Part shown: piece after piece, positions 996 through 63,076 of the stretch
Numbering within the stretch: position 1 is the stretch's first letter
How the letters are laid out: each line of letters begins with the position of its first letter
Assembly: GCA_017613275.1 (NCBI GenBank)
Contig: JAGAED010000003.1
Location: forward strand, 1,501-65,500
Length of the DNA: 64,000 nucleotides
Direction of reading: 5' to 3'
DNA from: Clostridia bacterium
Lineage (GTDB): Bacteria > Bacillota > Clostridia > TANB77 > CAG-508
Notes under the pieces: generated by a model
Seen by the model: the letters and a program-made list of their open reading frames with translations, nothing else
Told to the model about the DNA's origin: nothing
Database searches by the model: none
Program-made: the position numbers and the translations under genes

Positions 996-1079
996 CTTTC
1001 AGTTAACATTTTGGGACACTTACAAAAAGTAAGGACATGTCTTTACTTTTTGTAAGTGTCCCAAAATGTTAACTGAAAG
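996..1079. repeat. 84-bp near-perfect palindrome with two inverted copies of the TTTTGGGACACT repeat unit
   Basis: The 42-nt arms are complementary except for one G.T position, with the centre at 1037/1038. Confidence 0.9.
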
Positions 1080-2557: not shown

Positions 2558-3424
2558 ATGTCTTTTTCTAAAGATTTAAAACAAGAACTAAGTAAATTGA
2601 ATAATTTAGCTAAAAAAGATCAGGTAAAGCAAGAATTGGTAGGTTACTTAATTTCTAGTAATACAACCATTGATAACAAGGGCAATACAAGATATGCAAC
2701 AGAAAATGAGTACAATATCAATAGATTTTCCAAGCTTTTAAGCAATATGAATATTGATTTTAAAATAGAAATAGAAGGCAAAACTTTTGCTATAAAGTTT
2801 AACCTTAAAGAAACAGAAATTGTAACAATAAAAAATTGTGAAATATTTATAAAGGAAGATGACTTGCAAGAAGAACAAAAGAAAGCATTGATTAGAGGTG
2901 TATTTTTAGGCTCTGGGTCAATAAACAATCCAGAGAATAAATATCATTTAGAAATTGTATTTTCAAACAAGCAAAATATGAATGTAGTATTGCAATACCT
3001 AGCTGAATTTGGAATAACATTTAAAACATTAAAAAGCTCAAAGAAAAAATCCATATACATAAAAGATGGGGAAGAAATAGCAAACTTTTTAGCTCTAATT
3101 GGTGCAAACAGTAGTGTTTTAAAATTTGAAGACATACGAGTTCAAAAAGAAATGAGTGGAAAAGTAAATAGACTTGTAAACTGCAAAAGTGCTAATCTAA
3201 ACAAAACATTAAATGCATCAGTTGAACAAATAAATGCAATAAAAAAACTTCAAAAAAATAAAAAATTCAATAAACTAGATGACAACTTAAAAGAAATAGC
3301 AAATCTAAGACTAGAAAATCCAGATATGCCATTATCAGAACTTGGTAAATTACTATCAAACCCTGTTGGCAAATCCGGTGTAAATTACAGGCTTAAGAAA
3401 CTCATTGATTTAGCAAATGAGTAA
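2558..3424 (+). CDS. whiA: DNA-binding protein WhiA
   Basis: 288 aa. N-terminus MSFSKDLKQELS, a LAGLIDADG-like middle region, and a C-terminal HTH (SELGKLLSNPVGKSGVNYRLKKL). Confidence 0.85.
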   Translation: MSFSKDLKQELSKLNNLAKKDQVKQELVGYLISSNTTIDNKGNTRYATENEYNINRFSKLLSNMNIDFKIEIEGKTFAIKFNLKETEIVTIKNCEIFIKEDDLQEEQKKALIRGVFLGSGSINNPENKYHLEIVFSNKQNMNVVLQYLAEFGITFKTLKSSKKKSIYIKDGEEIANFLALIGANSSVLKFEDIRVQKEMSGKVNRLVNCKSANLNKTLNASVEQINAIKKLQKNKKFNKLDDNLKEIANLRLENPDMPLSELGKLLSNPVGKSGVNYRLKKLIDLANE

Positions 3425-3434
3425 GGAGGAAACA

Positions 3435-4587
3435 ATGAAGCAATTAGGAATTTACATACATATTCCATTTTGCAAAAGTAAATGCAAATATTGTGATTTT
3501 ACTTCATTTCAAGGAATAGAAGACAAGCAAGGAAACTACATAAATTGCCTAATAAAAGAAATAGAATCAAAAAACTGGGAAGAAATAAACAAAAATTACG
3601 AAATAACAACCATATACATAGGGGGGCGGAACCCCTTCTTTTATTGACTCAAAACACATTCAGAACTTATTAAAAATTCTAAAAGAAGAAATTCAAACAA
3701 ATTTAAATGAAGAAATAGAGATAACACTAGAAGTAAACCCGGGAACTGCCAATAAGGAAAAACTATTAAGCTATAAAGAAGCGGGAGTAAACAGATTAAG
3801 CATAGGTTTGCAAAGTACAAATAATAAATTATTAAAAGAAATTGGAAGAATTCATACATATGAACAATTTTTAGAAACTTATAATTTAGCAAAAGAAGTA
3901 GGTTTTGAAAATATAAATGTAGATTTAATGTTGGCACTTCCAAACCAATCAATTCAAGATTTAAAGCAGAGTGTAGAAGATGTGATAAAACTAAATTCAA
4001 ACCATATATCAGTATATTCTTTAATATTAGAAGAAGGCACTCCATTTTATGAATTAGACCAAGAAGGAAAGCTGAATTTGCCAAGCGAAGAGCAGGAAAG
4101 ACAAATGTATTGGTATGTAAAAAATAAGTTAGAATTAGCTGGGTATAATCATTATGAAATCTCAAACTTTTCAAAATTTGGAAAAGAATCAAAACATAAT
4201 TTGAACTGCTGGAATCAAGAAGAATACTTAGGTTTCGGGTTGGCAGCACATTCATATTTCGATAACAAAAGATTTAGCAATATTTCTAATTTAGATTTAT
4301 ATATGAAAAATATAGAAGAAAATAGTCAAGAAAAAAATGTGGAAATACACGAAGACCAGAGCTTAGAAGACAAGAAAAAAGAATATATACTTTTAGGATT
4401 AAGAAAAATAGAAGGTGTATCAATTTCAAAATTCAAAGAAAAATTTGTGGATAATCCAATTTATTTATTTAAAAATCAATTATCAAAACTTGTTGAAGAG
4501 GAGTTATTAGAGATTGACGGAGACTATATAAAGCTTACAAATAAAGGGTTAGATTTAGCAAATTTGGTTTGGGAGGAATTTATATAA
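3435..4587 (+). pseudogene. hemW: radical SAM heme chaperone HemW/HemN-like, interrupted by a +1 frameshift in a G6 run
   Basis: CxxxCxxC (FCKSKCKYCDF) lies in the first frame. At GGGGGG (3621-3626) the frame breaks: IGGRNPFFY* is read instead of IGGGTPSFIDSKH. The downstream frame continues to 4587. Confidence 0.85.
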
Positions 4588-5213: not shown

Positions 5214-5483
5214 ATGGCTCATAAAAAAGGTCAAGGTAGCTCTCATAATGGTAGAGAGTCAGAATCAAAACGTCTTGGTGTAAAAAGAGCAGATGGTCAA
5301 TTTGTTTTAGCTGGAAATATCTTAGTTAGACAAAGAGGAACTAAAGTACATCCTGGAACTAATGTTGGTAAAGGTAGCGATGATACATTATTCGCATTAG
5401 TAGATGGAAATGTAAAATTTGAAAGAAAAGGTAGAGATAAAAAACAAGTAAGTGTTTATCCTGTAGAAGAAGCTAAGGCATAA
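5214..5483 (+). CDS. rpmA: 50S ribosomal protein L27 (no N-terminal propeptide)
   Basis: AGGAG RBS, then ATG at 5214. Starts [24 protein letters not shown]. Confidence 0.95.
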
Positions 5484-5493
5484 CATATTACAT

Positions 5494-5523
5494 AAAAAAC
5501 AGCAAGAAATTGCTGTTTTTTTG
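5494..5523 (+). terminator. rho-independent terminator
   Basis: CAGCAA/TTGCTG stem plus a T7 run. Confidence 0.7.
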
Positions 5524-5599
5524 TGTTATAGTTGTTTTTATGTTTAAAATGTAGTATAATTATAATATGTAGTATAAAATCCTAAAGGAGGAATATATT

Positions 5600-7427
<1,828 letters not shown>

Positions 7428-9090: not shown

Positions 9091-9154
9091 ACTTTTTGGG
9101 ACACTTTCAAAAAGTCACCTGGTTTTTGGGGACACTCCCTAAAAACCAGGTTTT
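9091..9154. repeat. two tandem GGGACAC-repeat hairpins; the second acts as a terminator
   Basis: ACTTTTTGGGACACTTTCAAAAAGT followed by ACCTGGTTTTTGGGGACACTCCCTAAAAACCAGGTTTT. Confidence 0.85.
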
Positions 9155-9637: not shown

Positions 9638-9713
9638 GGTCGCTTAGCTCAGCTGGTAGAGCATCTGCCTTACAAGCAGGGGGTCATAGGTTCGAGCCCT
9701 ATAGCGACCACCA
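9638..9713 (+). tRNA. tRNA-Val (anticodon TAC)
   Basis: Cloverleaf read by hand. Anticodon loop CTTACAA, encoded CCA. A TTGACA/TATACT promoter lies at 9589-9617. Confidence 0.9.
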
Positions 9714-9743
9714 TTTATTTAATAACATGGCAATATTTAATAT

Positions 9744-9820
9744 GGCCCGGTAGTTCAGTTGGTTAGAACGCTAGCCTGTCACGCTAGAGGTCGACGGTTC
9801 GAGCCCGTTCCGGGTCGCCA
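9744..9820 (+). tRNA. tRNA-Asp (anticodon GTC)
   Basis: Anticodon loop CTGTCAC, T-loop GTTCGAGC, encoded CCA. Confidence 0.9.
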
Positions 9821-9833
9821 TTTTTTTATATAA

Positions 9834-9909
9834 GCCTCGATAGCTCAGTTGGTAGAGCAAGGGACTGAAAATCCCTGTGTCAGTGGTTCGATTCCACTTC
9901 GAGGCACCA
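9834..9909 (+). tRNA. tRNA-Phe (anticodon GAA)
   Basis: Anticodon loop CTGAAAA, T-arm AGTGGTTCGATTCCACT, encoded CCA. Confidence 0.9.
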
Positions 9910-13000: not shown

Positions 13001-13798
13001 TTATTTATATCTTATAAAATCATAATTACAATTTTGAGTAATTGTTAAAGCACCATCATATAATGATTTTTCACCATTTTCAAGAGGTGGTTCTATAAAA
13101 ACAGTACATTTAAATTCTTGGTCCAAATTATTTGTGATAATTATATCAAATGAAATTTTACAATTTAAAGAACTTAGTAAAACACCACATTTTTTAAGTA
13201 AAGAACCATCATAGGTTATTGGAGAACCAGTATCTGTAATTGTATAATCTGTTTTTATATTTTCGTTTATATAGCTTAAAACTATTGGATTTGCACAATT
13301 ATTGTATAAAGTTGGAGTGCTTAAATCTTCTGTATCATTTGAACTAATGCTAAAATTTAAATCATTTTCAAAAATATTTTCTTCCAAAATTGTATTTTTT
13401 GCAAAAGAATTTATATTTTTGTAAGCTAATTTTTGAGTTCCAATTGATGGCTTTTCAGTATATTGTAGATTTTCTAATCTTACACTTTTTAATGTATTTT
13501 CCATATTATTTTCATCATTAGTATTGTTCAAAAATATAGCAATATCAGTATATTGGTATAGATTTTCTATTGTGAAATTACTTGCTGTAGCATTTTTATT
13601 TTGGGCATTACAATTACTAAACAATACAATTTTATTTATGGAAAAAATTGTATTTTCATTTTTTGATGCAAAATCCAGATAATCTTTTTCACAATTTGAT
13701 TTATTTTTAAACATTCCGAAAACGCTTGTACATAGCACTACAAATACAATAACTAATATTATAAAAATTGAAATAAAAATAATTTTCTTCTTATCCAA
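13001..13798 (-). CDS. hypothetical membrane-anchored or secreted protein
   Basis: 265 aa with an N-terminal TM helix (IIFISIFIILVIVFVVL). Confidence 0.6.
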   Translation of the reverse strand: MDKKKIIFISIFIILVIVFVVLCTSVFGMFKNKSNCEKDYLDFASKNENTIFSINKIVLFSNCNAQNKNATASNFTIENLYQYTDIAIFLNNTNDENNMENTLKSVRLENLQYTEKPSIGTQKLAYKNINSFAKNTILEENIFENDLNFSISSNDTEDLSTPTLYNNCANPIVLSYINENIKTDYTITDTGSPITYDGSLLKKCGVLLSSLNCKISFDIIITNNLDQEFKCTVFIEPPLENGEKSLYDGALTITQNCNYDFIRYK

Positions 13799-14072
13799 AA
13801 CTTGTCCTCCTTTGTACGCTATTACTATATTATAAATTTAAATTTTTGGCAATATAAATTTTATAAAATGCTAAATATTATTATTTTCAAGCAACAATCG
13901 TGGGGACCGACAAATTACAGTATGTCAAAATATTTGAAAAATATTTTTTTACATACTGTTATGCAGTTGGGAGTTGCAGAAAATAATAATATTTAGCTAT
14001 AATAATAATTTTTCCAAAAATTTAAATTGACAATTTTCTACATTTTGTTTACAATTATTTTAGGTGATAAAT

Positions 14073-15266
14073 ATGAAAACAAAAGAGAAAATATACATAT
14101 TATTTTTGTTGATAATTTTAGCCATATCATTTTTCATATATATTATATTTACAAAAAATAACACTTATGCAAAAGAGTCAAATTCTGGTGTTCAAAATAC
14201 CAGAATTAGCAATGCAAAACAAGTAGACATATATGAAATAATAAAGAAAAATACTGTAGAAAAGCAAGAAGAAACAATAGAAACAAGAGAAGAACCTTTG
14301 GAATTCATTACCAAATACAAAACCAACAACGAGCTTCCAAAAGGCACAATGCAGGTGATTCAAGAAGGTAGAGAAGGTATTCAACAAATATCAATAAAAA
14401 GAATTTACCAAAATGGTAGTTTAATAGATGAGCAACAAATGGGAACAAAAGTTATAAAAGCTTCTGTTGAAAAAATAGTAGAAATTGGTGGAGCAAAATA
14501 CACAAGCTATTATAAAGTTAAAAAAGGCGACAATGTTTACACAACAGCAGATAGGGTTGAGGTAATGTTGGAACCAGATGGAAATAGCCAAAAACTAACT
14601 ACCATAGGGAAAAACAATGAACTAAAAATATTAGATTTAAATGACAATTGGTACAAAGTATCTGGAACAGCAGGAACTGGCTGGGTAAAGAAAGAAAGTA
14701 CTACTTATATAAATCCAAATGAAGGATTTGATGAAAGTAAATATGGGGCAAAATCAAAGGAACAATTGTTAAAAGAACTAAGCTTTGAAATGAAATTAAA
14801 TAAGCCTAGTGGATTAACTCTTGATCAGTTCAAAAAGATACTTTCAGACCCAAAAGATGTTAACAAAATATTTGAACAAAATGCAGAATATTTTTATTAC
14901 ATAGAAAAACAATATAATATAAATGGAGTGTTTGTAGCTGCAATAGGAATTCATGAAAGTGCATGGGGAACTTCTAAAATTGCAAGAGATAAGAAAAACC
15001 TATTTGGCTACGGAGCATACGATTCTAGCCCTTATAAATCTGCATATTCATTTGAAAACTATTCAGAAAGCATAGATTTAATAGCAAGGGTATTAACAAA
15101 ATATTATTTAAACCCAGCTGGAACATCAATTTACAATTCTGAAAAAGCAACTGGAAGTTATTATAATGGTTCAACATTATCAGGCGTAAATAAAAGATAT
15201 GCAACAGATAAAAACTGGGCAAACGGCGTGTTTAGTCATATGAAATATTTATACAATAAATTATAG
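14073..15266 (+). CDS. cell-wall hydrolase: TM + G5 + SH3b + GH73 N-acetylglucosaminidase
   Basis: G5-like VIQEGREGIQQISIKRIYQNG..EIGG, SH3b-like NWYKVSGTAGTGWVKK, and GH73-like GIHESAWGTSKIARDKKNLFGYGAYD. Confidence 0.75.
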   Translation: MKTKEKIYILFLLIILAISFFIYIIFTKNNTYAKESNSGVQNTRISNAKQVDIYEIIKKNTVEKQEETIETREEPLEFITKYKTNNELPKGTMQVIQEGREGIQQISIKRIYQNGSLIDEQQMGTKVIKASVEKIVEIGGAKYTSYYKVKKGDNVYTTADRVEVMLEPDGNSQKLTTIGKNNELKILDLNDNWYKVSGTAGTGWVKKESTTYINPNEGFDESKYGAKSKEQLLKELSFEMKLNKPSGLTLDQFKKILSDPKDVNKIFEQNAEYFYYIEKQYNINGVFVAAIGIHESAWGTSKIARDKKNLFGYGAYDSSPYKSAYSFENYSESIDLIARVLTKYYLNPAGTSIYNSEKATGSYYNGSTLSGVNKRYATDKNWANGVFSHMKYLYNKL

Positions 15267-21262: not shown

Positions 21263-21299
21263 CACTTAACTTTTTGAAAGTGTCCCAAAAAGTTAAGTG
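21263..21299. repeat. GGGACAC-repeat hairpin (minus orientation)
   Basis: CACTTAACTTTTTGAAAGTGTCCCAAAAAGTTAAGTG. Confidence 0.85.
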
Positions 21300-28450: not shown

Positions 28451-28480
28451 CTTTTTGGGACACTCCCCAAAAACAAGGTT
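28451..28480. repeat. GGGACAC-repeat hairpin
   Basis: CTTTTTGGGACACTCCCCAAAAACAAGGTT. Confidence 0.85.
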
Positions 28481-29830: not shown

Positions 29831-29905
29831 GGCCCCTTGGTCAAGCGGTTAAGACGCCACCCTCTCAAGGTGGAATCATGGGTTCGATTCCCGTAGGGGT
29901 CACCA
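29831..29905 (+). tRNA. tRNA-Glu (anticodon CTC)
   Basis: Starts GGCCCCTTGGTCAAGCGGTTAAGAC. Anticodon loop CTCTCAA, encoded CCA. Confidence 0.85.
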
Positions 29906-30093: not shown

Positions 30094-32811
30094 ATGGAAA
30101 ACTGGTTCAACAAAGAAATCAAAGACGTAGAAAACATCTTACAAACAGATGTAGAAAAAGGTTTAACTTCTGAAGAAGTTGCAAAAAGAAGAGAAAAATA
30201 TGGATTAAATCAGCTAGAAGCGGCAAAGAAAAAAACACTATTACAGAGATTTTTAGACCAATTTAAAGACTTCTCAATAATAGTATTGATAATAGCTGCA
30301 ATAGTATCTGGAGTAGTTGGAGTAGCTAATGGAGAAGGAATTACAGATACAATAATCATCTTAATAGTTGTACTTGTAAATGCAATAATTGGTGTATCTC
30401 AAGAAAGTAAGGCAGAAAAATCTTTAGAGGCTTTACAAAAACTTACAGACCATGCTTCAAAAGTTATAAGAAATGGCGAAATAACTGTAGTACCTGCAAA
30501 AGAACTAGTTCCAGGAGATATAGTTGTTTTAGACACAGGTGACTATATACCAGCAGATTTAAGAATTATAGAAGCTATAAATTTAAAAGCCCAAGAAGCT
30601 TCACTTACAGGAGAATCACTTCCAGTTGAAAAAGAAATTGGAAAAATAGATGATCCAGAAACAGGAATTGGCGATAGAATAAACATGGCATTTTCATCTA
30701 GCTTAGTAACTTATGGTAGAGGAAAAGGAATAGTAGTAGAAACAGGAATGACAACTGAAGTTGGTAAAATAGCAGGAATGATAAATTCAACAGAAAAACA
30801 AGAAACACCACTTCAAACAAAATTGAATAAATTAGGAAAAACACTTGGAATTGCAGCATTAGCAATATGTGCATTCATCTTCTTAGTTGGTTTAATACAA
30901 GGAAAAGAAGCAATACACATGTTTATGACAGCTGTAAGCTTAGCAGTTGCAGCAATACCAGAAGGATTAGTTGCGGTATCTACAATAGTTTTAGCAATAG
31001 GAGTTCAAAAAATGGTTAAGAAAAATGCCATTGTAAAAAGACTTCCAGCGGTTGAAACTCTTGGTAGTGCAACAGTTATATGTTCAGATAAAACAGGAAC
31101 ATTAACACAAAACAAAATGACAGTTGAAAAAATCTTTTGGAACAACAATCTAAGAGATTTAACAGATATAAAAGAAAACGAAATAGATGCAGAATTAAAT
31201 AAACTTGTATATGCAAACATGCTTTGTAATGATACAAAAGTATCAAACGATGGAACATTAACAGGTGATCCAACTGAAACAGCATTAGTAGACATGGCTT
31301 TCAAACTTGACTTTGACCCAACAATTTATGATAGGACACCACGTTTAGAAGAAGTTCCATTTGATTCAGACAGAAAATTAATGACAACAGTAAATGAAGT
31401 TAATGGAAAATACATAGTTTACACAAAAGGTGGAATTGATGAGTTATTAAACAGATGTGTAGCTTATGAAGTAAATGGTGAAATAAAAAATGATTTAGCA
31501 TCATATTCAAACACAATCAAACAAGAAAACGAAGGAATGGCAAAAGAAGCTCTAAGAGTTTTAGGATGTGCTTATAAAGAAATAGACCATGTACCAAACA
31601 AACAAGAAATGGAAGAAATTGAAAAAGACTTGATTTTCATTGGTATGGTTGGAATGATAGATCCACCAAGAGAAGAAGCAAAACATGCAGTTGATAAATG
31701 TAAAACAGCTGGAATAAAAACAGTAATGATTACAGGAGACCATAAAATTACTGCAACAGCAATAGCTAAAAAACTTGGAATTCTAGAAAATGAAGATGAA
31801 GCTATAACAGGCCTAGAGCTTGAAAAAATGAGCGATGAAGAACTAGAAAAAAATGTAAGAAAATATTCAGTTTATGCAAGAGTTTCTCCAGAACATAAAG
31901 TAAGAATAGTAAAAGCATGGCAAAAACAAGGCGAAATAGTTGCTATGACAGGTGATGGAGTAAACGATAGCCCTGCGCTAAAAACATCAGATATTGGTTG
32001 TGCAATGGGAATAGTTGGTACAGATGTTGCTAAAGAAGCAGCAGATGTAATCTTAACAGATGATAACTTTGCAACAATAGTTTCAGCAGTTGAAGAAGGA
32101 AGAAGAATATATGACAATATTTTAAAAGTAATTCAATTCTTACTTTCAAGCAATGTTGGAGAAATAATAGTATTATTCTTAGCAACAATGCTAACACCAC
32201 TATTTGCAAGCTGGTTTGGAATAACAGATGTAAATAATTTAGAAATATTATTACCAATACACATCTTATGGATAAACTTAGTAACAGACTCACTTCCAGC
32301 TTTAGCATTAGCATTTGACCCTGCAGACAAAGACATAATGAAACGTAAACCTGCAAAACCAGGTAAAGGCGTATTTACAAGAGGAATGTCTTGGAGAATA
32401 ATATACCAAGGAATGATGATTGGTTTATTAACTTTAGCAGCATTTATGATTGGATTAGCAACAACAACAGAACCAATAAATGGTTTAACATTAGATGCAT
32501 CAAAAATAGAAGTTGGTCAAACAATGGCATTCATAACACTAGCATTATCTGAACTTGTTCATGTATTTAACATTAGAAATAATAAAAAATCAATATTTAG
32601 AACAAGTATATTCAACAATCCAAAACTAATATTAGCAATAATAGCATCAGCAGCCTTAATGTTTGTAATACTATTAGTAGAGCCATTAAGAAACATATTC
32701 AGTATACCAGTATTACCATCACAAAACATATTAGAATTAGTTGGATTAGTATTTGCACCAATTGTAATAGTCGAAATATTTAAATTATTTAGAATAAATG
32801 GAAAAGATTAA
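30094..32811 (+). CDS. P2-type cation-transporting ATPase (Ca2+/Mn2+ family)
   Basis: 905 aa with CSDKTGTLT, IPEGL, TGDGVNDSPALK and 10 TM helices. Confidence 0.9.
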   Translation: MENWFNKEIKDVENILQTDVEKGLTSEEVAKRREKYGLNQLEAAKKKTLLQRFLDQFKDFSIIVLIIAAIVSGVVGVANGEGITDTIIILIVVLVNAIIGVSQESKAEKSLEALQKLTDHASKVIRNGEITVVPAKELVPGDIVVLDTGDYIPADLRIIEAINLKAQEASLTGESLPVEKEIGKIDDPETGIGDRINMAFSSSLVTYGRGKGIVVETGMTTEVGKIAGMINSTEKQETPLQTKLNKLGKTLGIAALAICAFIFLVGLIQGKEAIHMFMTAVSLAVAAIPEGLVAVSTIVLAIGVQKMVKKNAIVKRLPAVETLGSATVICSDKTGTLTQNKMTVEKIFWNNNLRDLTDIKENEIDAELNKLVYANMLCNDTKVSNDGTLTGDPTETALVDMAFKLDFDPTIYDRTPRLEEVPFDSDRKLMTTVNEVNGKYIVYTKGGIDELLNRCVAYEVNGEIKNDLASYSNTIKQENEGMAKEALRVLGCAYKEIDHVPNKQEMEEIEKDLIFIGMVGMIDPPREEAKHAVDKCKTAGIKTVMITGDHKITATAIAKKLGILENEDEAITGLELEKMSDEELEKNVRKYSVYARVSPEHKVRIVKAWQKQGEIVAMTGDGVNDSPALKTSDIGCAMGIVGTDVAKEAADVILTDDNFATIVSAVEEGRRIYDNILKVIQFLLSSNVGEIIVLFLATMLTPLFASWFGITDVNNLEILLPIHILWINLVTDSLPALALAFDPADKDIMKRKPAKPGKGVFTRGMSWRIIYQGMMIGLLTLAAFMIGLATTTEPINGLTLDASKIEVGQTMAFITLALSELVHVFNIRNNKKSIFRTSIFNNPKLILAIIASAALMFVILLVEPLRNIFSIPVLPSQNILELVGLVFAPIVIVEIFKLFRINGKD

Positions 32812-32814
32812 AAT

Positions 32815-32887
32815 CTTTTTAGAACACTTAGAAAACAAGGTTTGAATTAGCTAGACCTTGTTTTTTAAGAGTGTCCCAAAAAGTTTG
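32815..32887. repeat. inverted pair of GGGACAC-repeat units (one degenerate)
   Basis: CTTTTTAGAACACTTAGAAAACAAGGT, a 12-nt spacer, then ACCTTGTTTTTTAAGAGTGTCCCAAAAAG. Confidence 0.8.
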
Positions 32888-49596: not shown

Positions 49597-49633
49597 AACC
49601 TTGTTTTTTGGGAGTGTCCCAAAAAACAAGGTT
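49597..49633. repeat. perfect 37-bp palindromic GGGACAC-repeat terminator
   Basis: AACCTTGTTTTTTGGGAGTGTCCCAAAAAACAAGGTT. Confidence 0.9.
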
Positions 49634-54908: not shown

Positions 54909-56291
54909 ATGGTAGAATCAATGGACAAAATTGTAAGTCTATGTAAAAACAGAGGATTTATATATCCGGGTTCAGAAATTTATGGAGGACTAGCAAATAG
55001 CTGGGATTACGGCCCTTTAGGAGTAGAATTAAAAAACAATGTAAAAAAAGCATGGACAAAAAAATTCATACATGAAAGAAAGGATTCAGTAGGGTTAGAT
55101 GCAGCAATAATAATGAACCCAGAAACTTGGGTAGCAACAGGACACGTATCTACATTTAATGATCCATTAATTGATTGTAAAGCTTGTAAAACAAGACATA
55201 GAGCAGATAAAATAATTGAAAATTGGGCAGCAGAACATGGAATAGATATGTGTGCTGATGGAATGAGCAATGAAGCATTAGTAAAATATATTGATGATAA
55301 TGGAATCAATTGTCCAAACTGTGGAAAACATGACTTCACAGGAATTAGACAATTCAACTTAATGTTCAAAACTTTCCAAGGAGTAACAGAAGATACAACA
55401 TCAACAGTATATTTAAGACCAGAAACTTGCCAAGGTATTTTTGTTAACTTCAAAAATGTAATGAGAACATCAAGAAAAAAAGTTCCAATGGGTATGGGAC
55501 AAATTGGTAAAGCATTTAGAAATGAAATAACACCAGGAAACTTTACATTTAGAACAAGAGAATTCGAACAAATGGAATATGAATTCTTCTGCAAACCAGG
55601 AACAGACCTAGAATGGTTCGAATACTGGGAAAAATATTGCTTAGATTTCTTATTAAGTTTAGGATTAAAAGAAGAAAATGTAAGATATAGAAAACATGAA
55701 AAAGAAGAATTAGTATTTTATAGTAAAGCAACAACAGATATCGAATTCAAGTATCCATTTGGATGGGGAGAATTATGGGGAATTGCAGATAGAACAGACT
55801 ATGATTTAACAAGACATCAAGAACATGCAAAAACAGATATGTCATACTTAGATGTTGAGACAAATGAAAGATACATTCCTTATGTAATTGAACCATCAGT
55901 TGGTGTTGACAGATTAGCTTTAGCATTCTTATGCAATGGTTATGAAGAGCAAGATTTAGGTGAAGGAGATTCAAGAGTTGTACTTCACTTACACCCAGCA
56001 ATAGCACCATTTAAAGTTGCTGTTCTTCCACTATCTAAAAAATTGAGCGAAAAAGCAGAAGAAGTATATGAAGAACTTTCAAAATATTTCCCATGTGATT
56101 ATGATGAAGCTGGTTCAATTGGTAAAAGATATAGAAGAGAAGATGAAATTGGTACTCCATATTGCGTAACTATTGATTTTGATACATTAGAAGATGGTCA
56201 AGTTACTGTTCGAGATAGAGATACAATGGAACAAGAAAGAATTGCAATTACTGATTTAAAAGCTTGGTTAGATTCTAAAATGGATTTTTAA
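54909..56291 (+). CDS. glyQS: glycine--tRNA ligase (alpha2 type)
   Basis: 460 aa with class II motifs, [21 protein letters not shown]. Confidence 0.95.
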
Positions 56292-56469
56292 ATTTGTAAA
56301 TTAATAAAAAATATATAGACTAAATATATATTCTTCCCGGGTCTCCCCATTCACACAGTTCTAACAGGCAAAGCCTGAAAGAACTATGGAACGGTCCCCA
56401 CTTGACCACTCACAGAATATATATTTAGTCTTTTATTCTTGTATTTGGACTTTACAAATTTAAAAATCC
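56282..56469 (+). ncRNA. unclassified structured element, copy A (nested inverted repeats + twin C-rich boxes)
   Basis: Outer 19-bp IR 56282-56300/56451-56469. Inner 18-bp IR 56317-56334/56414-56431. Core TCCCGGGTCTCCCCATTC, hairpin AGTTCT-CAGGC-AAA-GCCTG-AGAACT, then GGAACGGTCCCCAC. Confidence 0.6.
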
Positions 56470-56514
56470 ATGTTATAACTATGTAAATTTTTTAAAGGAG
56501 GTTGAAATAGAAAA

Positions 56515-60844: not shown

Positions 60845-61951
60845 ATGAGAAAAAGAGAATTAAAAAATATGGAATGGTGGGTTTTAATAATAGCCCTCAT
60901 TTTATGCGCTATAGGCCTAGTTGCACTATTTTCAGCAACTCAAAATTCAAATTATGACTCATTTTACAAACAATTATTGTGGCTTGGAATAAGCTTAGGT
61001 ATAATGGTTATATTTGCAGTAATAGACTATGAAAAAATAGTAAAAGCATCACCAATATTTTATGTTGTGTTTTTAGTATTACTGGTAGCTGTATTATTTA
61101 CAAAGCCTATAAATGGTGCAAGTAGCTGGTTTGATATAGGATTTTTTTCCTTCCAACCAAGCGAATTTGCAAAAATATTTTTAATACTATTTTTAGCGTA
61201 TGTAATATCTAAAATACAGGCAAAACAAAAAGAAGACATAAATAAAATTTCCAGATTATTGTTAATACTAATCATAATAGGAATACCAATTTTACTAATT
61301 GTAAAAGAGCCAGACTATGGAACTGCAACAGCATTCATAATAGCAACTTTAATGATGCTATTTACAGCTGGAATAGATAAAAAATATATAATAGTTACAG
61401 TATTATTAGTAGCGATAGCAGTACCAGTTTTATATAACTTTGTATTACCAGATCACGCAAAACAAAGAATAGACGTATTCTTAAATCCAGAATCTGACCC
61501 AAGAGGGGCAGGATATAATATATTGCAATCAAAACTTGCGATAGGAGCTGGAGAGTTTACAGGGATGGGAGTATTAAAAGGAAACCAAACACAGCTAGGT
61601 TTCTTATATCCTAAAACCACAGACTTTATATTCTCTGTAATAAGTGAAGAAATGGGATTTGTAGTATCAACTAGTATTATAATTTTATATGTTGTTCTGA
61701 TAACAAAAGCGCTATATATAGCTAAAACTGCAAAAGACACAAAAGGTTCGGTAATTGCAACAGGAATAGCTGGAATATTCCTATTCCATATGCTAGAGAA
61801 TATAGGAATGGTAATGGGATTATTACCAATAACTGGTGTACCGCTATTATTTATCAGCTATGGTGGTAGTTCTCTAATAACAAGCTTTATATGTGTTGGG
61901 CTATTATTAAATATTAGTGGGAAAAGACAAAAAACTATTTTTGTAAAATAG
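60845..61951 (+). CDS. rodA: SEDS family peptidoglycan polymerase (RodA/FtsW)
   Basis: 368 aa with 10 TM helices, PSEFAKI and GVPLLFISYGGSS. It lies downstream of minDE. Confidence 0.8.
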   Translation: MRKRELKNMEWWVLIIALILCAIGLVALFSATQNSNYDSFYKQLLWLGISLGIMVIFAVIDYEKIVKASPIFYVVFLVLLVAVLFTKPINGASSWFDIGFFSFQPSEFAKIFLILFLAYVISKIQAKQKEDINKISRLLLILIIIGIPILLIVKEPDYGTATAFIIATLMMLFTAGIDKKYIIVTVLLVAIAVPVLYNFVLPDHAKQRIDVFLNPESDPRGAGYNILQSKLAIGAGEFTGMGVLKGNQTQLGFLYPKTTDFIFSVISEEMGFVVSTSIIILYVVLITKALYIAKTAKDTKGSVIATGIAGIFLFHMLENIGMVMGLLPITGVPLLFISYGGSSLITSFICVGLLLNISGKRQKTIFVK

Positions 61952-61960
61952 AGATATTTC

Positions 61961-62090
61961 AATTTATACTACAGATATTATATCTTTTTCCGTTATCCCC
62001 ATCCTAAATTTTCTTATGAAAGCAAAGCTTTCAAGAAAATTTGGACGGTCCCCACAATTTCACTTCAAAAGATATAATTTCGGTATTAAA
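61961..62090 (+). ncRNA. unclassified structured element, copy B
   Basis: 12-bp outer stem 61977-61988/62067-62078. Core TTCCGTTATCCCCATCC, hairpin AAATTTTCTT-GAAAGC-AAA-GCTTTC-AAGAAAATTT, then GGACGGTCCCCAC. Confidence 0.6.
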
Positions 62091-62101
62091 AAGAGGAAAA
62101 C

Positions 62102-63076
62102 ATGTTTATAAAAAGATTAAAAATTGGAAATGTAGAATTAGAAAATAATTTAATACTAGCTCCAATGGCAGGTGTAACAGACCTGCCTTTTAGAGTTTTA
62201 TGCAAAGAGCAAGGCGCAGGAATGGTTTGTACAGAAATGGCAAGCAGTAGAGCAATATTTCATAATGATGAAAAAACAAAACAGCTAATAGATACTACTG
62301 GAGAAAAAAGACCAATAAGCTATCAAATATTTGGCAGTGATGAAGAAAGCATGGCATATTCTGCAAAAGAATTTAGCGAATTCGCAGAAATAATAGACAT
62401 AAACATGGGATGCCCGGCACCAAAAGTAGTAAAAAATGGTGATGGAAGCAAATTACTATTAGATTTAGAAAAGGCAGAAAAAATAATAAAATCAGTAGTA
62501 CAAAACTCAACAGTTCCAGTAACTTTAAAAATGAGAAAAGGTTGGGACAAAGATCATATAGTAGCAGTAGAACTTGCTAAAATAGCTGAAAAATGCGGAG
62601 TATCAGCCATTACAATACATGGAAGAACAAGAACAGAATTCTTCAGCGGAAGTGTAGATTTAGAAATAATAAAAAAAGTTAAAGAGGCAGTTAATATTCC
62701 AGTTATAGGGAATGGAAATATAGTAGATGAAGAATCAGCTTTGGAAATGTTTGAAAAAACTGGTGTGGATGGAATAATGATAGGACGTGGAAGTCTTGGA
62801 AATCCATGGATTTTTAGAAATATAAAACATTTTTTAGAAACAGGAGAAAAATTGCCACAACCTACACCAGAAGAGAGAAAACAAGCAATGATAAAGCATA
62901 TAGAGCTTGCAATAAAAAATAAAGGTGAGCAAGTAGCTATTCATGAAATAAGAAAACATGTATCTTGGTATACAAAAAATTTACCAAACGCAAGTGAATT
63001 TAGAAATAAAGTTAATCATACAGAAAATAGCCAAGCTTTGCTAGATTTAATTGAAGAATATTTTAATAATATGTAG
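62102..63076 (+). CDS. dus: tRNA-dihydrouridine synthase
   Basis: LAPMAGVTDLPFR, DINMGCP and HGRTR. Confidence 0.9.
   Translation: MFIKRLKIGNVELENNLILAPMAGVTDLPFRVLCKEQGAGMVCTEMASSRAIFHNDEKTKQLIDTTGEKRPISYQIFGSDEESMAYSAKEFSEFAEIIDINMGCPAPKVVKNGDGSKLLLDLEKAEKIIKSVVQNSTVPVTLKMRKGWDKDHIVAVELAKIAEKCGVSAITIHGRTRTEFFSGSVDLEIIKKVKEAVNIPVIGNGNIVDEESALEMFEKTGVDGIMIGRGSLGNPWIFRNIKHFLETGEKLPQPTPEERKQAMIKHIELAIKNKGEQVAIHEIRKHVSWYTKNLPNASEFRNKVNHTENSQALLDLIEEYFNNM

Follow-up and report, generated by a model that had tools for sequence, protein, structure and literature searches.

Between the glyQS and dprA genes of the 64-kb stretch of clostridial DNA that we analyzed (hereafter, the window) lies an intergenic element, copy A, whose parts are collected in Table 1. 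A first-pass annotation had flagged it as ordered and unclassified, and its folding bears this out: copy A reaches -63 kcal/mol on the + strand (z = -10.4) and -77.6 kcal/mol on the - strand (z = -10.3), with 0 of 200 shuffles matching the native energy, and a second copy, copy B (folded over 61955-62095), gives z = -5.3 on both strands. As that annotation also stated, the element is noncoding; zero ORFs of at least 40 aa lie wholly within it, and the glyQS ORF overlaps its left outer arm only. An exact-protein lookup of the window's GlyRS returned no record.

Copy A consists of nested inverted repeats around an asymmetric core. The outer repeat, originally described as a perfect 19 bp, is a subset of a perfect 21-bp stretch (56280-56300 / 56451-56471) within 28-nt arms of 93% complementarity (56273-56300 / 56451-56478); its left arm spans the last three sense codons of glyQS (M-D-F) and the stop codon. 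The inner repeat, perfect over the 18 bp reported, lies within a 32-nt arm at 81%, and the proximal part of its left strand, ATATATTCT, is common to subfamily A copies, the distal part occurring only in copy A. The GC-richer core is likewise as first described, with TCCCCA at 56344-56349 (box 1) and 56395-56400 and a two-tier hairpin. Its 5′ side supplies the helix strands GGTC (56340-56343) and CCATTC (56347-56352). On the 3′ side, GACC (56404-56407) pairs with GGTC, and GAACGG (56389-56394) forms with CCATTC a helix that contains one A·C mismatch. The CCATTC / GAACGG helix closes the variable hairpin, and its flanks are the unpaired C-rich bulges TCCCCA and TCCCCAC, the latter being box 2 (56395-56401 in copy A). 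Covariation is seen in the core at column pairs 32-112 and 33-111 of the alignment. An apparent direct repeat linking the 5′ junction sequence to the 3′ one could not be reproduced; a 2-bp covarying helix is all that is supported.

Table 1. Features of the glyQS-dprA element and positions of the further copies in the window
Feature	Position	Strand	Remarks
glyQS ORF, 460 aa	54909-56291	+	End overlapped by left outer arm of the element
Left outer arm (ATGGATTTTTAAATTTGTAAA)	56280-56300	+	Locus-specific; outside the repeat family
A-rich spacer (TTAATAAAAAATATAT)	56301-56316	+	Corresponds to the A-tract that lies ahead of the terminator stem of a relative, L129
Left inner arm, perfect 18 bp	56317-56334	+	Inverted-repeat search, copy comparison
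5′ side of conserved asymmetric core	56335-56356	+	Sequence, fold, alignment
Central two-tier hairpin AGTTCT-AA-CAGGC-AAA-GCCTG-AA-AGAACT	56357-56385	+	Sequence differs among copies, pairing kept
3′ side of conserved core	56386-56413	+	Sequence, fold, alignment
Right inner arm	56414-56431	+	Perfect complement of 56317-56334
T-rich tract (TTTATTCTTGTATTTGGAC)	56432-56450	+	Aligns with T-tail of the plain intrinsic terminator in L129
Right outer arm (TTTACAAATTTAAAAATCCAT)	56451-56471	+	Native dprA upstream sequence
Copy B, short form, subfamily B	61965-62092	+	Covariance model 111.5 bits
Copy C, diverged	13862-14003	-	Covariance model 41.8 bits, E = 3e-7

The window holds three copies in its 64 kb (at 56.3, 62.0, and 13.9 kb). 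Copy B lies between a rodA/ftsW-like ORF (60845-61951) and a dusB-like ORF (62102-63076), names that represent our reading of the translations rather than a tool result. The first-pass annotation had recognized it as a second copy of the same architecture, and rightly so; ACGGTCCCCAC and TCCCCATYC are identical in A and B, and every helix differs in sequence. Copy C, which had been missed, has CTCCCAAC as box 1 and GGTCCCCAC as box 2 and occupies the divergent intergenic region between the ORFs at 13001-13798 (-) and 14064-15266 (+). When the window was searched with a covariance model built from 58 copies, A and B included, the three scored 95 (A), 111 (B), and 42 (C) bits; the matches ranked below them, none above 24 bits, are simple AT-rich hairpins.

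The glyQS-dprA site in related genomes

Comparison with related loci shows that the outermost arm of copy A is local dprA upstream sequence mirrored onto the end of glyQS. In L129 (90% identical), AAAAAAAGCACATTGTGCTTTTTTT, a plain intrinsic terminator, stands where the window has the element, and copy A lies between the same A-tract and T-tract that flank this terminator. The right outer arm, which had been counted as part of the element, is conserved in L126, L127, and L129 whether the element is present or not. The left outer arm is shared with L126 and, in L129, is absent past the stop codon. L126 (86% identical) carries another palindromic element (z = -8.9) within the same outer arms. 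The glyQS product ends in MDF* in the window and in MEF* in both L126 and L129, and it is because of this single GAA to GAT change that the 21-bp repeat is perfect. The site provides a worked example of a terminator's place being taken by a repeat, and of quasipalindrome correction reaching into coding sequence, with a change from E to D at the C-terminus of GlyRS.

Promoter and terminator scans of the element returned nothing specific, and copy A was not called as a terminator, its stem lying far beyond the limits of the scan. The right outer arm has a promoter-like TTTACA-17-TATAAC; since this does not satisfy the -10 rule of the promoter scan, we do not read the arm as the dprA promoter and report it as conserved upstream sequence only. 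No U-tract follows copy B or copy C, and terminator replacement is documented for copy A only. Growth of arms by the copying of flanks did not hold up as a general rule, the arms touching an ORF end in only 4 of 56 copies, by 3-7 nt, and we retain it for copy A alone.

One could argue from this site that there is no family function at all: that terminator hairpins have been grown and homogenized by template switching during replication, and that the core they share is a coincidence of composition. Copy A does replace a terminator, and template-switch growth and correction of arms is documented (PMC8794818) and visible here in the step from MEF to MDF. Such an origin is nevertheless extremely improbable. 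An identical 11-nt plus 8-nt GC-rich core, present in the 60 copies listed from genomes of 24-34% GC and joined by a covarying helix between its two boxes, cannot arise independently, and the covariance model separates the copies (42-111 bits) from ordinary hairpins; we regard the shared core as effectively refuting this explanation.

Copies, hosts, and orientation

A scan with the pattern CCCCATYC-N25-55-ACGGTCCCCAC, chosen from copies A and B, matched at least 118 loci. Among the matches listed, 58 copies fall in 55 low-GC loci (24-34% GC) representing at least 23 species-level metagenome-assembled genomes from rabbit, chicken, goat, mouse, and human gut, so that with the two in the window at least 60 copies fit the strict pattern; the remaining matches were rejected as chance occurrences in high-GC genomes. 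CCCCATYC is invariant because the search pattern came from A and B, and the true conservation of the boxes is therefore overstated; variant C has TCCCAAC. The CANPDB01 assembly contains at least 14 copies, and L039, L101, L105, and L109 each have two copies per 8 kb. All 60 copies among the matches listed are intergenic, and their neighbors are housekeeping genes (e.g., metG, murD-like, dtd, holA, and a glycogen debranching enzyme). Copies measure about 105-260 bp and fall into a short and a long size class. The element was absent from the IMG/VR viral contigs scanned, two matches there being attributable to chance on contigs of 63-69% GC. A multicopy sequence dispersed among housekeeping genes is not a one-off RNA gene.

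A search of Rfam 15 with copies A, B, and C gave no match at the gathering threshold, in keeping with the earlier statement that the element resembles no familiar family; in sensitive mode the best hits (E = 0.2-0.4) were to unrelated families, the top one, at E = 0.2, a plasmid pseudoknot. Seven related loci with typical copies gave no Rfam match either, and a full-text literature search for the box sequences retrieved only unrelated eukaryotic and viral papers. The small palindromic repeats to which copy A belongs form a family not described before; its hosts are uncultured low-GC gut Clostridia, bacteria whose small interspersed repeats are essentially uncharted.

Orientation is biased. Between co-directional genes, the copies listed are 28 sense versus 7 antisense (two-sided binomial p of about 5e-4, by our own arithmetic), and relative to local GC skew the split is 41 versus 13; in divergent and convergent contexts only, orientation relative to regional GC skew is 11 versus 4. 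Nine of the copies listed lie in divergent promoter regions. Replication-strand-specific insertion might account for the 4:1 sense bias, as might selection against the G-rich, Shine-Dalgarno-like complement (UGGGGA, AGGAGG) in mRNAs.

Copies have been gained and lost between related species. L048, whose genes are 84% identical, lacks a copy that L010 and L083 possess; its own copy occupies the adjacent intergenic gap. Where L113 and L105 have filled sites, the orthologous positions in the window hold no copy. Base-precise empty sites were sought in the L070/L015 and L113/window comparisons and rejected, the loci being too diverged or holding other hairpins. Between L010 and L083, the orthologous copies show a single difference in 131 nt; the two aligned blocks with the element, mostly genes, are about 6% divergent.

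Arm complementarity and the case for an RNA

Each copy is a long, near-perfect DNA palindrome with a conserved, strand-asymmetric center. The helix covariation reported from the first two copies is real: in the stem alignment, 92.3% of cells are paired versus 72% in shuffles, 315 cells carry double-sided changes, and 28 of the 32 stem pairs have compensatory changes. The character of these changes is what matters. G·U cells number about 19 of 1834 (about 1%); one-sided (wobble) changes amount to 0-1 per pair (pair 47-90 has 3) versus up to 24 double changes; and arm mismatches on the + strand comprise 30 of G·U type versus 36 of A·C type, with wobble bias on neither strand. Covariation that is nearly purely Watson-Crick and free of strand wobble bias marks a DNA palindrome rather than an RNA helix. 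The conclusion first drawn from two copies, that covariation argues for a selected RNA or ssDNA fold rather than a mobile repeat, is therefore not supported for an element that is a dispersed multicopy repeat with G·U nearly absent. That annotation had also proposed that identical stems in other copies would point to a mobile repeat. In this respect the picture is mixed, since most CANPDB01 copies do share near-identical stems, and the helices covary across copies overall.

There is precedent for such behavior in DNA. Compensatory changes are common in the hairpins of mobile REPINs (PMC3116915), and perfect hairpins are created and maintained through template switching (PMC8794818). We suggest that it may be DNA-level processes that keep the arms of this family complementary, namely template-switch (quasipalindrome) correction or else selection favoring hairpin-competent copies; maintenance of that kind would yield apparent covariation without RNA function. 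For motif discovery the lesson is cautionary, in that the two-copy covariation here probably stems from palindrome maintenance and not from an RNA fold, and the absence of G·U pairs together with equal numbers of G·U-type and A·C-type mismatches is a useful diagnostic.

We think it unlikely that the element is a functional structured RNA, whether co-transcribed with its flanking genes or released as a 3′UTR-derived sRNA, whose exposed, C-rich loops (UCCCCA, UCCCA, CCUCC) would target G-rich or Shine-Dalgarno sequences by pairing or bind an RNA-binding protein and whose long stems would act as RNase III or stability determinants. The 28:7 sense orientation, the strong fold z-scores, the unpaired C-rich segments on the same strand in every module and in the variant, the conservation of one orthologous copy well above its flanking sequence, and the position of copy A directly 3′ of the glyQS stop codon are all consistent with an RNA. 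Set against them, along with the scarcity of G·U pairs and the lack of strand bias among mismatches, are the dozens of copies that adjoin unrelated housekeeping genes, including the 7 antisense copies and the 9 in divergent promoter regions, the related genomes with the same sites but no element, and the failure of any Rfam family, C-rich sRNA families included, to match. The first-pass suggestion that the CCCC boxes serve as anti-Shine-Dalgarno seeds is a weak one: the local Shine-Dalgarno sequences are GGAGG rather than UGGGGA, a poor match to UCCCCA, and the spacing between copies and downstream starts varies (from 47 to about 500 nt or more).

Origin of the family and its relation to known repeats

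It is probable, in our estimation, that copy A belongs to a family of small palindromic DNA repeats, non-autonomous and scattered through intergenic regions, similar in kind to REP/REPIN, BOX/SPRITE, or MITE-like sequences, and the reading that we favor, with the same better-than-even confidence, is that of a non-autonomous, REPIN/BOX-like repeat sitting within a hairpin of the terminator type. Because there are no target duplications and no conserved termini, and because orientation is biased, we speculate that the asymmetric core could be the recognition site of a putative trans-acting enzyme that copies the element, likely on an ssDNA hairpin or cruciform. Copies may persist chiefly at positions that tolerate or benefit from a hairpin, namely in terminator stem-loops or in place of them, and the transcribed palindrome could still serve as a terminator or stabilizer hairpin.

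The ends of the element are unusual. Of 56 copies, 36 have no direct repeat abutting the palindrome (0 nt), and in the others it is 1 nt long (16 copies), 2 nt (3), or 3 nt (1). Terminal sequences vary from copy to copy, even inside one genome, with no conserved terminal inverted repeats, and no fixed flanking motif is evident around the copies. Conservation is instead central, asymmetric, and located in the C-rich bulges, the outer arms being most variable. The arms are modular: besides a short form there is a long one, which has a second junction (CGC-TCCCAG / TTCGCG), and the same frame can hold alternative cores, such that the common frame TACTCGCTCCCAG...CTTCGCGCTATT contains either the family core or a different core, AGGCTCCCCCAAG...CCTCC. 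All-versus-all clustering of 453 ORFs, drawn from about 0.5 Mb of sequence surrounding copies plus the window, found no recurrent ORF, and motif regular expressions found no HUH/Y1-like ORF or TnpA in this set. No insertion sequence was seen near copies in the sampled loci, Pfam assigned only housekeeping functions to the genes between paired copies, and none of the compared loci revealed an excision or insertion between identical flanks. A 1.36-kb indel beside the L074 copy, considered as a transposase candidate, turned out to be an HD-domain gene lost in L053 via deletion between 9-bp direct repeats. Mobility is thus deduced from copy number and from presence and absence at loci that are 70-86% identical.

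The architecture reverses that of REPINs and MITEs, with the center conserved and the ends variable, and fits no characterized transposition mechanism. The near-identity of the L010 and L083 copies and the sense bias could equally mean a host-level function, including one at the RNA level. Given a conserved center, variable ends, and no target duplications, a combination that no known transposition chemistry explains, the mobilizing activity seems worth finding. We allow a modest chance, well short of even, that these repeats represent a new class of hairpin-borne mobile DNA, whose central asymmetric C-rich bulge, and not its ends, would be recognized and copied by a putative enzyme acting on ssDNA or cruciforms, with a preference for insertion at the tips of hairpins already present; insertion into terminator loops and into earlier copies would then build nested, modular palindromes.

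Conservation of the core across at least 23 species, the apparent constraint on the orthologous copy, an orientation that tracks regional GC skew also where the neighboring genes diverge or converge, and the lack of a transposase among the sampled loci might instead suggest a host-domesticated DNA site, a palindrome with an asymmetric C-rich bulge bound or processed by a host protein of the nucleoid, gyrase, or recombination type, that was spread and kept for its benefit to the chromosome and not for current mobility, as proposed for REP/BIME. We consider this quite unlikely: presence is patchy between close relatives, a given frame or site can hold any of several unrelated cores, no protein emerged as a candidate binder, and nothing separates such a site from a long-lived, REPIN-like replicator.

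Returning to the repeat reading that we favor, the family can be placed among known systems as follows. Firmicute C-rich sRNAs of the RsaE/RoxS type come from single-copy genes, each equipped with its own promoter and terminator, and are represented by Rfam models. The element resembles them in displaying unpaired CCCC motifs in loops or bulges and differs in being multicopy and present in both orientations, in lacking an Rfam match, in yielding nothing specific in the promoter and terminator scans, and in having stems that behave as DNA palindromes. PATEs of the IS200/IS605 group have two different subterminal hairpins, at the left and right ends, and insert 3′ of a fixed tetra- or pentanucleotide. 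They require neither target duplications nor terminal inverted repeats, are recognized as hairpins on one strand, and would be expected to show strand or replication bias, features in which our element is similar; it is, in contrast, a single global palindrome with a central core, and the sampled loci contain no TnpA. MITEs, derived from DDE insertion sequences (PMC10969869), are likewise small, noncoding, palindromic, multicopy, and intergenic, but the present repeats have no target-site duplication, their termini are the least conserved part, and no parent insertion sequence with matching ends occurs in the sampled loci.

Further parallels are found in the pneumococcal repeats BOX, RUP, and SPRITE, which mirror coding bias, SPRITE being terminator-like (PMC3049150). 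BOX (modular boxA-B-C) and SPRITE share with our family Firmicute hosts, a length below 200-300 bp, AT-rich tight folds, modularity, an orientation that mirrors the coding strand, and the location of some copies at gene 3′ ends, where they resemble oversized terminators. BOX and RUP end in inverted repeats and are flanked by target duplications, whereas the element has neither, its C-rich asymmetric bulges have no counterpart in BOX or SPRITE, and we see no sequence resemblance, a matter of judgement rather than of a tool test. REP/REPIN sequences of Proteobacteria are mobilized by RAYT (TnpA-REP) Y1 HUH transposases (PMC3116915, PMC8266576) and have two conserved inverted REP ends (5′ GTAG-type) around a variable spacer; the repeats described here have a conserved asymmetric center and ends that vary most, reside in Clostridia of 24-34% GC, and have no RAYT gene in the roughly 0.5 Mb of loci or in the window. 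In other respects the repeats resemble REPINs, which are also high-copy, extragenic palindromes that form long hairpins of about 100 bp with compensatory changes, show no target-site duplication, and persist vertically over long periods, with ssDNA hairpins as their presumed substrate.

Copy A and its repeat family

Copy A, the element 3' of glyQS, is a nested palindrome (56280-56471; Table) whose fold, on either strand, beats dinucleotide shuffles by about 10 standard deviations; the glyQS ORF (460 aa) extends into its left outer arm by its last codons and stop. Copy B (61955-62095) has a fold z of -5.3. Coordinates and fold statistics bear out the nested inverted repeats, GC-richer core and second copy described in the first-pass annotation, and direct comparison agrees that the boxes, the C-rich TCCCCA/TCCCCAC segments flanking the central hairpin, are identical in the two copies while every helix differs in sequence. 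That annotation could assign the element to no riboswitch, ribozyme or sRNA family, and Rfam 15 gave no match at the gathering threshold and, in sensitive mode, nothing above noise. The sole Rfam matches in the window are 6S RNA (83 bits) and four tRNA genes (1325-1517, 9638-9906, 29831-29902).

A pattern derived from the two boxes common to A and B, scanned across GTDB with one genome per species, returned at least 118 matching loci. About half of those listed are fortuitous, lying in high-GC genomes or at a coding motif of gapA; among the matches listed, the loci of low GC hold at least 58 copies, or 60 (24-34% GC) with the two from the window. All 60 display the full architecture, and all 60 are intergenic, adjoined by ordinary housekeeping genes. 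The low-GC loci come from at least 23 species-level MAGs, which represent uncultured Clostridia and were recovered from the gut of rabbits, chickens, goats, mice and humans; one MAG assembly, CANPDB01, contributes at least 14 copies, and in several instances two copies lie within one 8-kb locus. A covariance model of 58 copies, A and B included, scores copy B at 111 bits and copy A at 95 bits, and revealed a diverged third window copy, C (13862-14003, minus strand; 42 bits, E = 3e-7), the remaining window matches (≤24 bits) all being plain AT-rich hairpins. In copy C, box 1 reads TCCCAAC and box 2 reads GGTCCCCAC; CANPDB01 has this variant too. The element is absent from the IMG/VR viral contigs scanned. 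Copy A belongs to a repeat family and is not a locus-specific RNA.

In the conserved core, CCATTC...GAACGG closes a variable hairpin; the 5' bulge is small and ends T-CC, the 3' bulge is larger (TCCCCAC-NN), and the internal loop is closed by a covarying helix of 2-5 bp. The variable part of the family is the arms, the inverted-repeat halves around the core. A short form (~105-135 bp) has a single AT-rich arm pair flanking the core, and a long form (~200-260 bp) adds a second junction, CGC-TCCCAG opposite TTCGCG, and another arm pair of 25-37 bp. Since the identical outer frame in CANPDB01 also houses a different core, AGGCTCCCCCAAG...CCTCC, the repeat system is modular or nested; in cores and modules alike, unpaired C-rich segments are found repeatedly on one strand.

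Coordinates of copy A, related palindromes and other features (L numbers are loci of related MAGs)
Feature	Position	Description
Copy A outer arms	56273-56300 / 56451-56478	28 nt at 93%, 21 bp perfect
Copy A inner arms	56317-56334 / 56414-56431	perfect 18 bp, part of 32-nt arm at 81%
Copy A TCCCCA boxes	56344-56349 and 56395-56400	one each side of central hairpin
Copy A two-tier hairpin	56357-56385	between both TCCCCA boxes
L126 palindromic element	L126 2771-2945	~175 bp; 25-bp arms GCAAAATATATTAATTTTTAAACCC, GC-rich core without CCCCA boxes
Outer frame TACTCGCTCCCAGGAG...CTCCTTCGCGCTATT	L038 (- strand, 300); L066 (+3412, -1996); L116 (-5342)	alternative C-rich core AGGCTCCCCCAAGTAATTCCTACTCGTATCCTCC
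Deletion of HD-domain (dGTPase-like) gene and element's left outer arm	L053 1226-1290 vs L074 2777-4140	9-bp direct repeats TTCAAATTT
GTGTCCCAAAAAG hairpin motif	window 1007-1068 (inverted pair), 9092-9138, 21277-21292, 28451-28466, 32868-32883, 49611-49626	

A second dispersed motif, the small hairpin CTTTTTG-RRAGTGTCC-CAAAAAG ('GTGTCCCAAAAAG'), has 8 matches in the window versus 0.5 expected, mostly directly 3' of terminator-like hairpins, and is present in related locus L015 (~7300); it may represent a further small repeat, or else a signal resembling an uptake sequence. Locus L089 has, downstream of an orthologue of window ORF 30094-32811, another long palindrome (3390-3500; TGTGGAGGTAGGGAAATGTGGGGACGCCC...GGGCGTCCCCACATTTCCCTACCTCCACA), whose arms are G-rich and C-rich.

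The glyQS-dprA site and the turnover of copies

Relatives retrieved via DprA supplied two orthologous loci, L129 and L126. L129, 90% identical over glyQS, is without the element: between its stop codon and the dprA SD lie, in this order, a plain intrinsic terminator (AAATAAAAAAA-GCACA-TT-GTGC-TTTTTTTATTTTTG) and ACTTTACAAATTTAAAAATCCGTGTTATAAAT. The window keeps the A-tract (56301-56316) and T-tract (56432-56450) of this terminator, and its inner arms and core sit exactly at the position of the 11-nt terminator stem-loop; the right outer arm is, on sequence comparison, conserved dprA upstream sequence. Copy A occupies the place of a terminator stem-loop, and its outermost arm is local sequence. 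In L126 (86% identical), outer arms like those of the window, TAAATTTGTAAA / TTTACAAATTTA, enclose a different palindromic element (DNA fold z = -8.9) at the exact site of copy A. Among the closest relatives by GlyRS, whose gene order differs, no element was found downstream of glyQS.

The GlyRS C-terminus, K-[ILM]-[EDK]-F in 120 relatives, ends MDF* (GAT) in the window (56286-56291) versus MEF* (GAA) in L126 and L129, and this single GAA to GAT change renders the 21-bp outer repeat perfect. It is likely a template-switch (quasipalindrome) correction from the dprA-side arm, one that would have reached into coding sequence. By mirroring dprA upstream sequence, the left outer arm creates a promoter-like site, TTTACA-17-TAGAAT (10/12 matches; 56272-56300, minus strand), that points antisense into glyQS.

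Species differ by gains and losses of copies. L010 and L083 (93-94% identical) have an orthologous copy in common; L048 (84%) has none at that site and carries one in the next gap, and the window sites orthologous to filled sites of L113 (86%) and L105 (~70%) are empty. This orthologous pair shows one difference in 131 nt, versus ~6% over the surrounding aligned blocks of L010 and L083 (Poisson P ~0.003, hand arithmetic); the element is under constraint, from the host or from its own replication. Between co-directional genes, 28 copies are sense and 7 antisense (p ~5e-4, hand arithmetic), and relative to local GC skew the split is 41 against 13, or 11 against 4 in the subset whose adjacent genes are uninformative, counts that fit a replication-strand or a transcription-strand effect alike, without separating them. 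The orientation of pneumococcal BOX, RUP and SPRITE repeats mirrors coding bias too (PMC3049150).

Covariation of a DNA kind

Within one genome, as in CANPDB01, inner arms are near-identical in most copies; outer arms of copies from one genome are only ~70-80% alike (estimated from the alignment), and left and right arms of each copy stay almost perfectly complementary. When the 58 copies are aligned, 92.3% of cells are paired, versus 72% in shuffles and 39-51% with partners slid, and double-sided changes occur in 28 of 32 pairs (315 cells). Single-sided (wobble) changes number 0-1 per pair, versus up to 24 double changes, with pair 47-90 the exception at 3; G·U cells are only ~19 of 1834. A selected RNA helix can accommodate G·U on its own strand but not A·C. 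When left and right arms of every copy are aligned (2718 matches), transition-type mismatches on the plus strand comprise 30 of G·U type versus 36 of A·C type; neither strand is favoured, so the arms behave as mutual copies in duplex DNA. The helices do covary, as the first-pass annotation proposed, yet arm complementarity across the family is strictly Watson-Crick, and the covariation is of the DNA rather than the RNA kind. Two known processes produce such a pattern: selection for hairpin-competent mobile copies, and replication template switching. Compensatory changes are reported to be frequent in REPINs (PMC3116915), and template switching corrects and extends quasipalindromes (PMC8794818; PMC8604942).

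The same annotation suggested an sRNA with anti-SD boxes, which is possible for those sense copies that are transcribed. Against this reading stand the copy number, the existence of antisense and promoter-region copies, the lack of wobble pairs, the varying distance to downstream genes and SDs that read GGAGG.

Proposed mode of spread and known repeat systems

The copies have no target-site duplications and no conserved termini. Low-GC loci and window together contain no recurrent ORF among 453 clustered and no HUH-type ORF among those of 100-260 aa; a single-copy RAYT-like gene elsewhere in the host genomes, beyond these sequences, is possible. A 1.36-kb indel beside the L074 copy is an ordinary deletion of an HD-domain gene between direct repeats (Table), and involves no transposase. 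L074 also encodes OLE RNA (5251-5852; 334 bits), which places the hosts among OLE-bearing anaerobic Firmicutes.

We suspect that a copying enzyme, acting in trans on hairpin or cruciform DNA, uses the core as its handle. Copies would persist at places that tolerate or use a hairpin, so that in RNA they may also serve as terminator or stabiliser hairpins. Template switching, or selection for mobility, would keep the arms complementary, and the sense bias could arise if one replication strand is targeted, or if mRNAs are kept free of the G-rich, SD-like complement.

What we describe is a family of intergenic DNA palindromes, multi-copy and modular, that share an asymmetric core under conservation at their centre. 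A literature search found no earlier description, and Rfam has no model; the family is real and previously unclassified, with an atypical conserved-centre architecture. It should matter mainly to researchers of mobile DNA, and it is a caution for RNA-motif discovery. The element lacks the single-copy status and the own promoter and terminator of an sRNA, the terminal inverted repeats and target duplications of MITEs, and the two distinct end hairpins of PATEs. REPINs are characterized by conserved ends, which it lacks, and by a RAYT, of which the loci and window searched show none; it nevertheless works most like REPINs or the pneumococcal BOX/SPRITE repeats.
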